Notes under the pieces: generated by a model
What the model saw: the letters and a program-made list of their open reading frames with translations, nothing else
What the model was told of the DNA's origin: nothing
The model's database searches: none
Source: an uncultured Dehalococcoidia bacterium
GTDB lineage: Bacteria; Chloroflexota; Dehalococcoidia; Lucifugimonadales; UBA3495
Assembly: GCA_964645515.1 (NCBI GenBank)
Contig: CAZYBD010000010.1
Span: 1-26,856, forward strand
Reading direction: 5' to 3'
Length of the DNA stretch: 26,856 nucleotides
Made by a program: the position numbers and the translations under genes
In this document: positions 8,213-21,812 of the stretch, piece by piece
How the letters are laid out: each line of letters begins with the position of its first letter
Numbering within the stretch: position 1 is the stretch's first letter

Positions 8213-10231
8213 CTACGGCTGTAGCAGCACCCGGACGGTGCCGTCCACGTCTTTACGCTGGGTCAGCAGCTTGTGGCCTGCCTGCTCCGACCAGCCGATG
8301 ACGTCGTATATGTTCAGGGCGTCGGCAAGGATGGCTTCCACGAACGACTGGTTGTCAAGTTCCATCTGACGGGATAGAGCAGCGATTACCCCGGCGCAAC
8401 TCTTGCCGCGCCCGTCGATGATGATCCAGCCGCCGGTACCGTTGTTGACGACCGGTGCAACATCGTCGTGGACGCTGACCTCACCGCTCTTGCGCAGGTC
8501 CAACTGGCGCTTGAACTCCGCCACGGCTTCCCAGGCCACCGCCCGACCGCGGTCACCCGAAGAGCATACGGCGCCGCGCACTCCAACGATGTCGGGGTTG
8601 ATGCGTTCCAGTTCATCCAAGTCATCTATCTTCAGGTGACCGGACAGTGCCGTGCTCATGCCCAACTGTTTACCCTGCAAGATGATGTCCCGTAGCACCG
8701 GCTCGGGCATGAAGTCAAACAAGTTGCGGCCGTCTTTAGTCAAGGTATCTATCAGGAAACCGTCGCATTCACCGTCCTTGGCAAGCTGCACCATGCAATG
8801 GGGGTCCAGTCCGTCCTCGTATAGCTCGTTGTCGGCGAACACTGAGCCGATTAGCTTGGTGTTGAAGCCCTCCAACGCCCTCCGCGACTCGCGCAGCACG
8901 GCCACTGCGTCGTCGTACGAGCCACGCTGGAAGCCGACCTTGACCGACGTTGCGTCCAATTGGGCAGCGGCGTAGGCCGCCATGGCTACGGTGCCGGCCT
9001 GGTTAGGCACAACACCCAAGGTTACGCTGACGTGCTTTTCCACCGGGATGGTGCCCCGCACCTGCCGTACCGTGGAAGGATGTCCTGAACCCACCAGGGC
9101 CTCTTGGAGGTTTTTGACATCGACTACGTCGGCCCCGCCCTGTTCGGCCTCTAGCGCCTCTTCTAAGTTTTGGACGCTGACCATCAGCAACATGCCCGAC
9201 GCGAAGTTATTGTTACCGTCTAGCCAGGATGTCCGGGAAGCCGTGGGGGCGGCCGGCGCTGGAACCCGCGGCTTAAGTGGTTCCAACTCCTCGCGGAGTT
9301 CTGACTTTTCCACCGGAGAGAGGTCGGCTAACGGCAGTCGTGTTGGGCCGGCTGCCATGCCCATCAACTCGGCCCAATGCTTGACCAGCGGCACTGGAAG
9401 CGCCCCGTTGTACTTGGTGACCGTGCGGGTCCACCAGGTGTCTGACAACTCTTTCAAGCGCCGCAGGTGGGTCTCGTAGAATTGTTCGTCCAAGTCGCCT
9501 TTGGTGGCTCGGTCTATGAACTGGACGTAGTTATTGGCGCCAGGTATGTCGAAACGCCAATCCGAGGTATTGGCAAACATTACCTGCTGTTGTATGCCCA
9601 GCTCCTGAGCTTTGAAGAAGATCCACTCGTCGGGGGTGCTGATGACCGCCTCTTTCCCCAAGGTCAGGTGGGCTTCGATTGACAGTTGCTGGTTAAAGCT
9701 GGCCTCCTTGACTCCCACTACGTTGGGTATGCGGCAAAGGCGTTGCATCCCGTAGGTGCTCATTACTATTCCGAACTGTGGAGAGTTGTAGAACATAATG
9801 GCCAGATCGGTGTTAGCGGCTAATAGCCGAACGTATTCGACCACCTGGTCCTCGGTCTTGGCAACCATGTAGGGCGGGGCCACGATGAGCAGGTCGAACC
9901 CTTTGCCTTGGGCGTGCTGAGCTAACGATAGCATCTCGGAGGCGGAGGTGTCGGTAACATGGGCGCCGATAGGCCAGCTACCTGCGGCCTCCTCGGCCAC
10001 CGTGTCCATCACCTGGATCCTTTCTGCGTGGGTCAGGCTCCAGAACTCACCCATTCCCCAGGTGCAACCGCCCCCGGTGCTCCCCAGGCTTCGCACATGC
10101 CTTATATTGCGTTTGACCCCCTCCTGGTCGATGCGGTCGTCGGGTGTGAACGGGGTAATTAACGTAGTCCATTGGCCCTTGAGAGTTTCCCAAGCCCACT
10201 CCTGGGCCTCGTGCTTCTTGTAATCAGTCAT
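8213..10231 (-). CDS. Tri-domain fusion: DapA/DHDPS-family aldolase (aa ~1-320) + MfnB-like 4-HFC-P synthase (aa ~347-578) + TusA/SirA-like domain (aa ~602-672)
   Basis: DapA fold: TTLITPFTPDDRID, GEFWSLTHAER, PPY, FYNSP, VVGVKEAS. MfnB: LLMVSVQNLEEALEAEQGGADVVDVKN, SVKVG, LIDTLTKDGRNLFDF, ALSGHL, PDIVGVRGAVCSSGDR. TusA-like: IDGRGKSC...DVIGWSEQAGHKLL. Continuous ORF with Pro/Ala linker and SD-like AGAGGG upstream. Confidence 0.88.
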   Translation of the reverse strand: MTDYKKHEAQEWAWETLKGQWTTLITPFTPDDRIDQEGVKRNIRHVRSLGSTGGGCTWGMGEFWSLTHAERIQVMDTVAEEAAGSWPIGAHVTDTSASEMLSLAQHAQGKGFDLLIVAPPYMVAKTEDQVVEYVRLLAANTDLAIMFYNSPQFGIVMSTYGMQRLCRIPNVVGVKEASFNQQLSIEAHLTLGKEAVISTPDEWIFFKAQELGIQQQVMFANTSDWRFDIPGANNYVQFIDRATKGDLDEQFYETHLRRLKELSDTWWTRTVTKYNGALPVPLVKHWAELMGMAAGPTRLPLADLSPVEKSELREELEPLKPRVPAPAAPTASRTSWLDGNNNFASGMLLMVSVQNLEEALEAEQGGADVVDVKNLQEALVGSGHPSTVRQVRGTIPVEKHVSVTLGVVPNQAGTVAMAAYAAAQLDATSVKVGFQRGSYDDAVAVLRESRRALEGFNTKLIGSVFADNELYEDGLDPHCMVQLAKDGECDGFLIDTLTKDGRNLFDFMPEPVLRDIILQGKQLGMSTALSGHLKIDDLDELERINPDIVGVRGAVCSSGDRGRAVAWEAVAEFKRQLDLRKSGEVSVHDDVAPVVNNGTGGWIIIDGRGKSCAGVIAALSRQMELDNQSFVEAILADALNIYDVIGWSEQAGHKLLTQRKDVDGTVRVLLQP

Positions 10232-10276: not shown

Positions 10277-12238
10277 TTACTCGTCGTCCTCGTACTGGCC
10301 TTTGAGGGAATCCACGACCGCCGGATCCGCTAGGGTCGTGGTATCGCCCAACGCACGCCCTTCCGCTACGTCTCGCAGGAGGCGCCGCATGATCTTGCCG
10401 CTACGGGTTTTGGGCAACTCGGCTGCAAAATAGATGTCGTCGGGCCTGGCCATGGGGCCGATCTTCCCGGCCACATGGGCCTTGAGCTCGGTTATCACCT
10501 CATCGGACATGGTGACTTGATCTTTTAGAGTGACGAAGGCCACTATGGCCTGTCCTTTGACTTCATGGTCTTTACCGATGCAAGCAGCCTCGGCCACTTT
10601 CAGGTTGTCTACTAACGCGCTCTCAACTTCCATGGTACCGATGCGGTGGCCCGAAACGTTGATCACGTCGTCCACCCTACCCAAGAGCCAGAAATAGCTT
10701 TCCTCGTCCAGCTTGGCTCCATCAGCGGTGAAATAAGTCCCTGGATAGCGGGACCAGTAGGTCTCCTTGAACCGTTCGGGGTCGCCGTAAATGTTGCGCA
10801 GCATCGACGGCCACGGCTTCTTGATGGTGAGGTAGCCTCCGCCTCCAGGTCCTACCGGATTACCGGCTTCGTCCAAGATTTCTGCGCTGATGCCCGGAAA
10901 AGCTTTGGTCGCCGAACCAGGTTTGAGAGTGGTGAGGCCCGGCAATGGCGCAATCATGATACTGCCCGTCTCAGTCTGCCACCAGGTGTCTACCACGGGA
11001 CAATTCCCCAGCCCGATGTTTTTCCAGTACCAGACCCAGGCTTCCGGGTTAATGGGCTCACCCACTGTCCCCAGCAGACGCAGAGAGGACAGGTCGTGTT
11101 TCTGAGGGTAGCCCTCTCCCCATCGCATGAAGGTGCGTATGGCGGTGGGAGCGGTATAAAGAATGGAAACGCCATACTTGGCGATGATGGCCCAAAACCG
11201 GTCTCTGTCCGGATAGTCGGGAGAGCCTTCGTACATTACAGAGGTCGTGCCGTTGGCCAACGGCCCGTAGACAATGTAGCTATGGCCTGTCACCCAGCCG
11301 ATGTCAGCGGTGCACCAATAAGTGTCTTCTTCTTTCAAGTCGATGATCCATTTGGTAGTGGCGTAAGTGCCCAACAAATAGCCGCCGGTAGTATGGACAA
11401 TGCCCTTGGGCTTACCGGTGGTGCCGCTGGTGTACAGGAGGTAGAGCATGTCCTCGCTGTCCATCTGCTCTGGCTCGCAGGTCTGGGGCTGACCCTCCAC
11501 TAGGTCGTGCCACCAGATGTCCCGGCCTTCGACCATGCTGTCGTCTGCGCTGCCGGTGCGTCGGAGAACCACCACGGTCTCGATGCTGTAGGTGCCGTCC
11601 AACGAATCGTCGGAGTTCTGCTTTAGCGGGACGATACCACCCCGGCGGTAGCCACCGTCGGCAGTTATCAAGATTTTGGACTGAGAGTCGTTAATCCGGT
11701 CCCTCAAGGACTCGGGGCTGAACCCACCGAACACGACGCTGTGGGGGGCACCAATACGGGCGCAAGCCAGCATGGCAATGGGTAACTCGGGGGTCATGGG
11801 CAGGTAGATAGTGACCCGGTCTCCCTTTTCCACTCCCTGACTTTTCAGGCCGTTAGCGAAGCGGCAGACCTCGCGGTAGAGGTCCCAATACGTGTAGACT
11901 TTCGAGTCGCCGGGCTCCCCTTCCCAGATTATGGCGGCCTTGTTTCGGCGGCTGGAAGTCAGGTGCCGGTCGAGGCAGTTGTAGGAGACGTTAAGCTTGC
12001 CTCCCACGAACCACTTGGCGAAAGGGGGATCCCACTCCAAGACCTTGTCCCATTTCTTAAACCAGTCCAGTTCCTCGGCAAACTTGGCCCAGAAGGCTTC
12101 TGGGTTCTCGGTTGCAGTCTCGTAGATCTTGGGATCGTTGACGTTGGCTTGTTTGACGAATTCGGTAGGAGGGGGGAATGTTCGGTCCTCTTGAAGCAGG
12201 GCGTCGATAGTTCCGGTGCTTCCCGAGTTTTCAACCAC
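10277..12238 (-). CDS. acs: Acetyl-CoA synthetase (AMP-forming)
   Basis: [53 protein letters not shown] and acetylation motif [19 protein letters not shown] is 8 nt before the GTG. Confidence 0.98.
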
Positions 12239-19841: not shown

Positions 19842-20816
19842 ATGCGCGCACGCAGTATACGGATTTCGGTCGGAATCGTTCTTATCCTTGGCGTCGCATT
19901 GGCGGCCCTCGGATTCAAGACCATAGATATTCCTGTGTTGGGGGAGCGTGACGGCAGTGGCCCCTTGGGCTTGAAGTTAGGTCTTGACCTGCGCGGAGGC
20001 GGCCACCTTGTCTATCAGGCTGACACCGGCACCCGTTTCGATCTGACCTTTGCGGAACCTGTCGACTTCAATGAGTTGTCCACGGCGCTAAACGATCTCA
20101 GATTCGGCGCCGATGATCTAGCGTTGGATGGGCTGCAGATCATACCCAGGGATTTGCGTTTAACTCAACCCGAAGAAATGTCGGCCGATGAAGACGCCGA
20201 GTCTCCAGCGGTACCGTCAGGCGAAGAAGGTCATACTGCCGGCTCGGCAGACAATGATGGCGGGGCGGATATTGAGACTACGGAGGCCGCGGTGGTTGCG
20301 GTGACGCCGGTCGTTACTCGTGTGCAGGTCAGGACCTCGCTCTTCAACGACGACGATCCGCGGCGCACTCAGCTGAGGAGCACGCTGACTGATCAGTTTG
20401 GTGAGGTCAGTCTGTTTCAGATCAACGACATTGGAGAGCCCACCAGAGACCAGATGGAAGGGGTTCTCGACAACATTACTCGGCGGGTCAATCGGTTCGG
20501 CACGGAAGAGCCGATTATCCAGATCTTTGGCGACGACCGGATCATCGTTCAGTTGCCCGGAGCCAGCGGATCGGTCTCGGAGATCCGGTTCGTCGAGCCC
20601 GTAACCGAGAGCGAAGATTTGGCGGCGCTGCCGCTCCTGTTAGAAAGCGCCGGCTTTGAAGACTTCGTTATCGACGGAAGTAGCGACCAACGGACTTTCA
20701 GAGTGACATCGGACACTATTGGCAGAGCTGCCCAAAACGCGGCGTTGAATTCTTTGACAGACCAGATCGGTTCCATCGAGTCGTTCGAGGTTACCAGCGG
20801 TATTGACGAGGCCTAA
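19842..20816 (+). CDS. secD: SecD N-terminal part (TM1 + expanded periplasmic region), ending at an in-frame TAA
   Basis: Hydrophobic TM1, LKLGLDLRGGGHLVYQAD and ITRRVNRFGTEEPIIQIFGDDRIIVQLPG. In frame with the next ORF, separated only by TAA-GAC. Confidence 0.85.
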   Translation: MRARSIRISVGIVLILGVALAALGFKTIDIPVLGERDGSGPLGLKLGLDLRGGGHLVYQADTGTRFDLTFAEPVDFNELSTALNDLRFGADDLALDGLQIIPRDLRLTQPEEMSADEDAESPAVPSGEEGHTAGSADNDGGADIETTEAAVVAVTPVVTRVQVRTSLFNDDDPRRTQLRSTLTDQFGEVSLFQINDIGEPTRDQMEGVLDNITRRVNRFGTEEPIIQIFGDDRIIVQLPGASGSVSEIRFVEPVTESEDLAALPLLLESAGFEDFVIDGSSDQRTFRVTSDTIGRAAQNAALNSLTDQIGSIESFEVTSGIDEA

Positions 20817-20819
20817 GAC

Positions 20820-21812
20820 TTGATCGGCCAGACTGCTAGTTTGGAGTTTAAAGAGCGAACCTGCCAGACAGAACTGTGTATGAATTTCACCGACACCGAC
20901 CTAGACCTGAGCGGAGATGACCTCTCACGCGCCGAAGCAGGCACGGACCCGGTGGGTGTCGGCTGGGTTGTCAACATAGAGTTCAGGGGTCGAGGCACCG
21001 ATATATTCTCGGACATGACCCGGCGCATCCAAGGCGTGGAGACCAAGCGTATAGCGGTGTTCATGGACGACGAAGAACTCGTCGCACCCGTTGCTCGCGC
21101 CTGGATACGTGACGGACGAACCCAGGTCAGCGGTAACTTCACCAGAGACGAGGCCCAGACCTTGGCCATCCAGTTGGAGTCCGGGCGTCTGCCGGTGCCG
21201 CTCAAACTGATCCAAGAAAGTGACGTAGACGCCTTGTTGGGTTCCGAGTCTCTGAGAAACAGCTTGCTGGCGGGGCTGGTGGGTCTGGGTCTTGTGTTAG
21301 TGTTCATGGTGGTCTACTACCGGATGGCGGGAGTGGTGGCTGGGGCCGCGTTGGTGTTCTATGCTGTCGTGGCCTTGTCTATATTCAAGCTTCTTCCCAT
21401 TACGCTGGAACTGGCCCATATTGGTGGGTTCATCCTGTCCGTAGGCATGGCAGTGGACGCCAACGTATTGATCTTCGAGCGCATGAAAGAAGAGGTTCGT
21501 GTCGGCCGCACCTTGGCGTCATCCATGGAAGTAGGCTTTGGCCGTGCTTGGCCAGCCATCAGAGATAGTAACTTTTCCACGATTATCACTTGTCTGGTGC
21601 TTCTGTGGTTCGGTGACCGCCTGGGTGGCGGACTGGTCACCGGGGTAGCCATTAGCTTGTTGATAGGCGTATTGGTCAGCATGTTCACTGCGGTGGTTGT
21701 CAGCAGGAACCTATTGCAATTACTGGCCTTCGTAGGACTAGGCCATCGGATTAACCTGTTCACTCCTGAACCAGTCCAGCGGGCAGTTGAAAATACCGGG
21801 GGTGCCAGATAG
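20820..21812 (+). CDS. secD: SecD C-terminal part (P1 head/base + TM2-6)
   Basis: LIGQTASLEF, IQLESGRLPVPL, LGSESLRNSLLAG, IGGFILSVGMAVDANVLIFERMKEE, GFGRAWPAIRDSN. The stop overlaps the secF start (TAGTG). Confidence 0.9.
   Translation: MIGQTASLEFKERTCQTELCMNFTDTDLDLSGDDLSRAEAGTDPVGVGWVVNIEFRGRGTDIFSDMTRRIQGVETKRIAVFMDDEELVAPVARAWIRDGRTQVSGNFTRDEAQTLAIQLESGRLPVPLKLIQESDVDALLGSESLRNSLLAGLVGLGLVLVFMVVYYRMAGVVAGAALVFYAVVALSIFKLLPITLELAHIGGFILSVGMAVDANVLIFERMKEEVRVGRTLASSMEVGFGRAWPAIRDSNFSTIITCLVLLWFGDRLGGGLVTGVAISLLIGVLVSMFTAVVVSRNLLQLLAFVGLGHRINLFTPEPVQRAVENTGGAR

Follow-up and report, generated by a model that had tools for sequence, protein, structure and literature searches.

To our knowledge, no role has been described for MfnB other than that of first enzyme in the synthesis of methanofuran and methylofuran; what, then, does an MfnB-like barrel do in the genome of an uncultured Dehalococcoidia bacterium? 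The barrel is encoded on the reverse strand of a 26,856-nucleotide stretch of that genome (GCA_964645515.1, contig CAZYBD010000010.1; the whole stretch is hereafter called the window), within a gene for a 672-residue protein in which it is flanked by a DHDPS-like barrel on the N-terminal side and a TusA-like domain on the C-terminal side. An earlier sequence-only reading had described it as an orphan MfnB domain working outside classical methanofuran synthesis. On balance, we incline to the view that the barrel forms the catalytic core of a self-contained enzyme of three parts, which makes a small molecule unrelated to methanofuran.

The family assignment proposed from the letters was borne out, as were the coordinates given with it, and the match (residues 347-577, positions 8501-9193; Table 1) was far beyond chance. 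Residues 349-573 matched PF04476 (4HFCP_synth) with an E value of 1.8e-53 and 182 bits against a gathering cut-off of 22.4, covering profile positions 1-227 of 228. The only solved relative detected by sequence was the MfnB of M. jannaschii, MJ1099 (PDB 4rc1/4u9p; E 4e-40, about 35% identity), and a Foldseek comparison of the modelled barrel with the same structures gave an E value of 9e-20, TM scores of 0.88-0.91 and root-mean-square deviations of 2.4-2.6 Å. The AlphaFold (AF2) model used here had a mean predicted local confidence (pLDDT) of 75 over the whole protein and mostly 75-93 in the MfnB-like domain. Alignment with 4rc1 and a comparison of 167 sequences (144 canonical MfnBs and 23 of the SAR202 clade that carries the three-part protein) equated D371, K373, K431, D495 and K499 with D25, K27, K85, D151 and K155 of MfnB, as well as R552, C556 and R561 of the GVRGAVC..GDR motif with R208, C212 and R217, so that the retention of both sets claimed by the sequence-only reading was confirmed. 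All five catalytic residues were invariant in the 23 clade sequences, and also in 38 aligned homologues. In MfnB itself, two Lys and two Asp residues are essential and Lys27 forms the Schiff base, the residues behind cyclisation and dehydration not being assigned (PMC6604932), and K155 is regarded as a catalytic or substrate-binding residue (PMC11365854). Because the five residues are invariant in the clade, catalytic activity of the module may fairly be inferred.

The clade nevertheless departs from canonical MfnBs at sites that are otherwise nearly invariant. The substitutions P29L, G32A, L34V, A36S, D61V, Y122F and A186S (MJ1099 numbering) were 100% fixed in the clade, canonical conservation at these sites being 91-99% (93-94% for D61 and Y122); L88F was likewise fixed, at a site 77% conserved among canonical MfnBs. 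Accordingly, the clade reads KNL.EA.VGS against canonical KNP.EG.LGA and LGVVP against canonical GD.P; the differences that had been noticed at the KNPxEGSLGAxFP and VGDVP stretches are real and clade-fixed, and Y122F, L88F and A186S come in addition to them. Most of the same substitutions appeared in the consensus of archaeal forms in which the three parts are separate genes. In the AF2 model, V407 and F465 are located at the C-terminal ends of barrel strands, which form the catalytic face of a TIM barrel, so that D61V and Y122F have probably deprived the surroundings of the active site of two polar groups. Together with the long stem branch of the clade described below, the fixed substitutions at near-invariant sites support re-specialisation of the domain. 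As regards the earlier wording, an active but possibly re-specialised furan synthase, its first two terms are thus a fair inference and a supported one, respectively, and the synthesis of a furan is still an assumption.

The genomic context bears on whether the protein could be an ordinary MfnB that makes 4-(hydroxymethyl)-2-furancarboxaldehyde phosphate (4-HFC-P) out of two GA3P for methanofuran or methylofuran, with the remaining pathway encoded elsewhere in the genome. Family membership and the intact catalytic residues would agree with this explanation. The window's genome (2.02 Mb in 249 contigs, 87% complete) contained a single PF04476 match, and neither searches for Fae, Mch, Ftr and MfnF nor tblastn searches for MfnA and MfnD found these enzymes in it, mfnC and mfnE not having been searched for separately; to this extent, the whole-genome search called for by the sequence-only reading upheld its placement of the domain outside classical methanofuran synthesis. 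Nor did Ftr, Mch or MfnF turn up in five module-carrying relatives that are 92-98% complete in one or two contigs each, and FwdC gave only sub-cut-off matches in the same five, inside open reading frames (ORFs) of about 1500 aa, the size of glutamate synthase. Since these enzymes were found neither in the window's genome nor in the relatives, classical methanofuran synthesis in the hosts of the module is very unlikely. Moreover, residues 347-577 reached only about half the cut-offs of the NCBIfam MfnB equivalogs (178 versus 341 bits for NF002573; 171 versus 304 bits for NF002575), canonical sites carried the fixed substitutions, and two canonical mfnB loci that were inspected, next to mfnA or mfnD, showed neither a DHDPS-like nor a TusA-like part. 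We therefore consider an ordinary MfnB hardly credible here. Because it scores below the equivalog cut-offs, departs from canonical MfnBs at several near-invariant positions and lacks their pathway context, the stretch is a member of the Pfam MfnB family that is not filed as an MfnB orthologue.

The description of the domain as an orphan had to be abandoned: it is rather the middle module of a conserved unit composed of DHDPS-like, MfnB-like and TusA-like parts. More than 500 homologues of the full-length fusion were found at 75-92% identity, and relatives occurred in 232 species-level genomes at 68-93% identity, nearly all of them labelled Dehalococcoidia, SAR202 or Chloroflexota. Among the loci fetched, 58 carried the fused gene, and in 22 an MfnB+TusA gene was immediately preceded by a separate DHDPS-like gene, a two-gene split that was also seen in independent assemblies. 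Eight archaeal or metagenomic loci (metagenome-assembled genomes (MAGs) of Thermoplasmata, 'Micrarchaeota/Microcaldota' and Marsarchaeota) had separate, tightly spaced genes, MfnB-like and then TusA-like (72 aa), followed in six of the eight by the DHDPS-like gene; the other two (L084 and L255) were without it in the short sequence available. This pattern of fusion and fission provides the strongest evidence that the three parts are likely to work together, whether they are encoded by one gene, two or three. All three domains were under strong purifying selection, with K175, Y148, the five MfnB residues and C612 invariant, and 52% of the positions of the MfnB-like domain were at least 98% conserved over 79 sequences. 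Linker 1 (pLDDT below 50 for residues 322-345) had a top-residue frequency of 0.70, below that of the three domains, and is the place of the gene boundary in the split forms; linker 2 (pLDDT below 50 for residues 590-600) was the least conserved part of the protein. No description of the three-part fusion was found in the literature on MfnB in Chloroflexi, SAR202 methanofuran, MfnB with TusA, and UPF0264/DUF556/4-HFC-P, the text matches to 'DUF556' in PMC10364804 being DUF5565.

Table 1. Positions in the window of the module gene, its parts and signals, and the adjoining gene.
Feature	Position in window	Strand	Basis or remark
Whole gene, 672-aa three-domain protein (P0001)	8213..10231	-	ORF, Pfam, homologues
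Gene signals	ATG at 10231; stop codon 8213-8215; GAGG-type ribosome-binding site about 9 nt upstream of ATG		
DHDPS/NAL-family class I aldolase-like barrel, residues 18-317	9281..10180	-	PF00701, 3si9 alignment, Foldseek
Linker 1, Pro/Ala-rich, residues 318-346	9194..9280	-	pLDDT, conservation
MfnB-like (4HFCP_synth) TIM barrel, residues 347-577	8501..9193	-	Pfam, NCBIfam, structure, alignment
Catalytic codons of the MfnB-like barrel	D371 9119-9121; K373 9113-9115; K431 8939-8941; D495 8747-8749; K499 8735-8737	-	
Clade-specific residues L375, A378, V407, F465 and S530 of the MfnB-like barrel	V407 9011-9013; F465 8837-8839	-	
Linker 2, residues 578-603: end of last barrel helix, then variable segment	8423..8500	-	
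TusA-like domain, residues 604-671	8219..8422	-	PF01206, AF2 topology, Cys conservation
acs (acetate-CoA ligase)	10277..12238	-	45 nt upstream of module gene; TIGR02188 980 bits

The N-terminal barrel belongs to a familiar superfamily, with a remodelled active site. Residues 18-317 matched PF00701 (DHDPS) with an E value of 2.5e-32, and Foldseek aligned the barrel with DapA/NanA structures at a TM score of about 0.8. Every equivalog cut-off was missed, including that of dapA (TIGR00674, 83 bits versus 206), and the nearest NCBIfam subfamily was KdgD (5-dehydro-4-deoxyglucarate dehydratase; PRK03620), again below the cut-off at 96.7 bits. Of the DapA catalytic triad (Thr44, Tyr107 and Tyr133), Arg138 and Lys161, alignment with 3si9 showed just two to be kept, namely the Schiff-base Lys161 as Lys175 (9707-9709) and Tyr133 of the YN.P motif as Tyr148; the GTTGE motif has become WGMGE, with G59 and M60 in place of the Thr pair, and Tyr107 and Arg138 are replaced by Met122 and Phe153, respectively. 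The motifs W(G/N)MGEFWS (where DapA has GTTGE), YNSPQFG and KEASFN were common to archaea and SAR202 and invariant in 38 sequences, and the invariant Trp and Phe residues of the barrel form an unusual set. The window's genome encodes a true DapA at another site (C12, 2918-3763; 315 bits).

The resemblance to KdgD raises the catabolic explanation, in which the two Schiff-base barrels would break down a furanic compound, a sugar acid or a sulfosugar that the heterotrophic hosts take up. SAR202 is described as a degrader of recalcitrant organic matter, and CoxMSL-type hydroxylase, P450 and FAA hydrolase genes neighbour the module in some lineages, both of which would fit. The module has no conserved transporter, regulator or additional catabolic gene next to it, however, and 68-93% identity across more than 230 species would be unusual for a peripheral catabolic enzyme. 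The MfnB chemistry, an irreversible condensation with dehydrations (PMC6604932), also speaks for synthesis rather than breakdown, and we consider the catabolic explanation improbable.

The C-terminal domain resembled TusA, with a weak match. PF01206 was hit with an E value of 0.0035 by the whole protein and 1e-4 by the domain alone (17.6-22.5 bits against a gathering cut-off of 28.6), 19 of 22 homologous C-terminal domains matched TusA at E ≤ 0.01, and a PDB sequence search with the domain gave no significant match. The AF2 model showed a beta-alpha-beta-alpha-beta-beta topology over about 70 residues, including a strand at 602-606 and a helix from 612 with C612 at its start. This Cys612 (8396-8398) stands in D-G-R-G-K-S-C-A-G, the CPxP motif having been lost to C-A-G-V, and was kept in 21 of 22 aligned rows including the separate archaeal 72-aa genes, the exception being a frameshifted contig. 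The fold and the Cys at the N-terminus of helix 1 thus agree with membership of the TusA family, and the CPxP motif and the Pfam gathering score do not. On one contig (L085, 5054-6103; P0125), the TusA-like end of the MfnB+TusA gene is out of frame and the called protein ends in Arg/Pro/His-rich junk, probably owing to indel errors, so that the split architecture cannot be relied on there; L086-L092 and other loci show it robustly.

The invariant Cys in a TusA-homologous domain always fused or adjacent to the MfnB-like part prompts a rival explanation, in which no furan would be made. By analogy with ThiG/ThiS, a Cys612 persulfide would give sulfur to the Lys-bound, triose-derived intermediate and the DHDPS-like barrel would supply a second carbon unit, the product being a sulfur-containing heterocycle or a thiol. 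The loss of D61 and Y122, polar and conserved in canonical MfnBs, is consistent with this route, as is an APS kinase gene directly downstream of the module in one archaeal locus. Against it, the domain lacks CPxP, the defining motif of TusA sulfur carriers, the module shows no linkage to a cysteine desulfurase, a rhodanese or a partner of the DsrE type, and TusA-fold domains can be purely structural. We regard this route as unlikely.

The phylogeny of the module was examined against archaeal MfnBs. A search of 1.84 billion cluster representatives showed identity falling from 60-76% within the module clade to 46% for stand-alone MfnBs and then to 27-42%. All module sequences formed one clade (FastTree support 99-100; IQ-TREE SH-aLRT 100) whose stem, placed inside the canonical MfnBs, measured 0.95 changes per site in IQ-TREE. 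Its sister was a stand-alone MfnB adjoining an mfnA-like decarboxylase gene, and two further stand-alone MfnBs near the clade (in FastTree; not part of the IQ-TREE run) adjoined mfnA or an mfnD-like ligase gene. With the tree rooted among canonical MfnBs, the archaeal three-gene forms were basal and SAR202 was nested within them (support 100, stem 0.5); the split forms were one clade (support 94). The related-locus search, seeded with a 13-sequence alignment, returned archaeal MfnBs only, and the methylotroph MfnBs that the sequence-only reading had wished to see included were not labelled in the trees. These relationships suggest that the module originated from a methanofuran MfnB and was assembled in archaea, followed by transfer to SAR202 with rearrangement and fusion, the direction from archaea to SAR202 depending on the rooting and on a quick tree search. 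We tentatively propose, as a possibility that falls somewhat short of probable, that the protein is a previously undescribed biosynthetic enzyme, derived from methanofuran MfnB in non-methanogenic archaea and passed to the SAR202 ancestor, that makes a possibly sulfur-bearing heteroaromatic metabolite or cofactor from triose phosphates in ocean bacteria of global abundance.

If the three-part enzyme is biosynthetic, its reaction may be envisaged as follows. Lys373 would form a Schiff base with a triose phosphate and, together with K431, D371, D495 and K499, would carry out phosphate elimination, isomerisation and aldol condensation of the MfnB type. This would yield a C6 aldehyde phosphate of 4-HFC-P type or, given the loss of D61 and Y122, possibly its uncyclised precursor. 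In the DHDPS-like barrel, with its remodelled carboxylate site and many invariant Trp and Phe residues, a 2-oxo acid or carbonyl compound would be bound to Lys175 as a Schiff base, and this barrel would then condense with, or process, the reactive intermediate coming from the MfnB-like barrel. Cys612 of the TusA-like domain could act as a persulfide sulfur donor or as a carrier of the intermediate between the two barrels. Our best guess for the product of the MfnB-like module is a furan-type aldehyde phosphate, processed further by the partner domains.

Several points weigh against this proposal. Within Dehalococcoidia the module is patchy, being present in 9 of 151 sampled genomes, always in open frames of 680-755 aa, and in none of eight from the window's own order; it is an accessory function, not a core one. 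The removal of two conserved polar side chains by D61V and Y122F means that furan formation itself may be lost. Pyruvate may not be the substrate of the DHDPS-like barrel, because the Thr pair that normally holds its carboxylate is replaced. Both the sequence of the steps and the part played by the Cys are guesses, and the neighbourhoods, which differ by lineage, give no pathway context.

The other genes of the window (glmS, thrB, aspartate kinase, a GT2 glycosyltransferase, speD, speE, acs, an MFS transporter, rplS, priA, def, a CCA-adding enzyme, secDF, nfo, pgpA and rpsB) are housekeeping genes only, in accord with the earlier remark that the window contains no mfnA/C/D/E/F, fae, mch or fhc genes; its GHMP kinase and amino-acid kinase are ThrB and aspartate kinase, respectively, so that neither gene belongs to methanopterin synthesis or is mfnE. 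No terminator-like site was found in the stretch between acs and the module gene, and acs is probably co-transcribed with the module gene here, without being a conserved partner. The acs-module-speED synteny was confined to a close subgroup. The arrangements in other groups were ThiD-IleRS-Fpg-gene-CoxMSL, FAH-gene-P450-ExoIII and RecG-gene-small ORFs, and the archaeal loci differed again. A conserved operon partner was rejected on a census of 185 loci, which showed lineage-specific synteny only. UbiD and UbiA occurred about 6 kb from the module in one split-form synteny group only, and no quinone gene was found within 10 kb of the module in the annotated archaeal loci.

Some of these neighbourhoods suggested that the module could offer another way of making one half of thiamine, either the thiazole or the pyrimidine. 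In a Marsarchaeota MAG (L254, 1240-4860), thiL (TIGR01379, above the cut-off) and thiE lie directly upstream of the module on the same strand, and thiD is found two genes upstream in one SAR202 synteny group (L060, 2054-2857). Moreover, Thi4, ThiG and ThiC were not found in five archaeal genomes with the module, and ThiC was missing from the window's genome and from all five genomes of family f28 (91-95% complete). Nevertheless, the thi linkage was seen in only one of five archaeal loci and the archaeal MAGs, of 0.9-1.9 Mb, are of unknown completeness; all nine module-carrying SAR202 genomes have ThiG, and most of them Dxs; family f25 has ThiC together with the module, and many genomes without the module also lack ThiC. 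Taken together, a role in thiamine synthesis appears highly improbable. The window's genome has ThiD, ThiE, ThiG and ThiL, with no ThiC match and weak Dxs-like matches only; this may reflect the 87% completeness or an auxotrophy for the hydroxymethylpyrimidine (HMP) moiety. Replacement of a missing core enzyme by the module was likewise rejected, as PdxS, ThiG, true DapA, NadA and AroB were present in all nine SAR202 genomes with the module, and so was replacement of Dxs, which seven of these nine genomes possess; in the other two, the window's genome and G131, the matches were weak and partial.

A few further observations concern individual loci. The fused gene on a contig of a MAG labelled Planctomycetota (L046; JADFOJ010000064.1) was 77-78% identical to that of the window, and the window's other genes were unmatched on that locus, which is likely a mis-binned SAR202 contig. 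One genome (G066) carried two copies of the fusion with near-identical scores (C1, 3795-4466, and C2, 2236580-2237251), one of them near a contig end, representing either a real duplication or an assembly duplicate. In a low-GC marine split-form lineage, two small overlapping ORFs of 103 and 93 aa directly follow the MfnB+TusA gene (L086, 9003-9588); both are Lys-rich and without a recorded Pfam match, the first contains a hydrophobic segment, and the pair is seen again in about 11 loci. In the window itself, two plus-strand ORFs (8652-8975 and 8982-9479) overlap the MfnB-like stretch antisense to the conserved gene, and secD (19842-21812) is divided into two ORFs, 19842-20816 (SecD N-terminal/P1) and 20820-21812 (P1-head/C-terminal), so that an in-frame stop or a sequencing error may be suspected near 20817.

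The three-part protein contains an MfnB offshoot, to all appearance catalytically intact, that has become fixed in a major clade of Chloroflexota, aerobic and of marine and subsurface habitats, as well as in some archaea of Thermoplasmatota type. Because this offshoot is constantly coupled to a remodelled barrel of the DapA family and to a TusA-like domain with a Cys, a small-molecule pathway still to be assigned is indicated in these very abundant, mostly uncultured microbes, and the whole unit, a single polypeptide of 672 residues in the window, shows the re-use of one of the most multi-step single-site enzymes known.

Compared with known systems, the module shares with MfnB (MJ1099; PF04476; EC 4.2.3.153) the Pfam family, the TIM barrel and the residues equivalent to D25, K27, K85, D151, K155, R208 and R217; it differs in scoring below the equivalog cut-off, in the clade substitutions, in being tied to DHDPS-like and TusA-like parts, and in residing in hosts without the methanofuran and tetrahydromethanopterin (H4MPT) enzymes searched for. 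With the DapA/DHDPS-NAL superfamily (PF00701), the N-terminal barrel has the fold, the Schiff-base Lys175 and Tyr148 in common, whereas it has invariant Trp and Phe residues and is without the GTTGE Thr pair, Tyr107 and Arg138. Likewise, the C-terminal domain is similar to TusA/SirA (PF01206) in size, topology, the D-x-R-G-x-x-C motif at the start of helix 1 and a D...W...GH pattern near the C-terminus, in contrast to its C-A-G in place of C-P-x-P, its sub-gathering Pfam score and the absence of a linked sulfur-relay partner. As a functional parallel, ThiG/ThiS also combines a Schiff-base TIM barrel acting on a sugar phosphate with a small protein able to deliver sulfur; this pair has no sequence relationship to the module, and ThiG itself is present in all SAR202 genomes that carry it.

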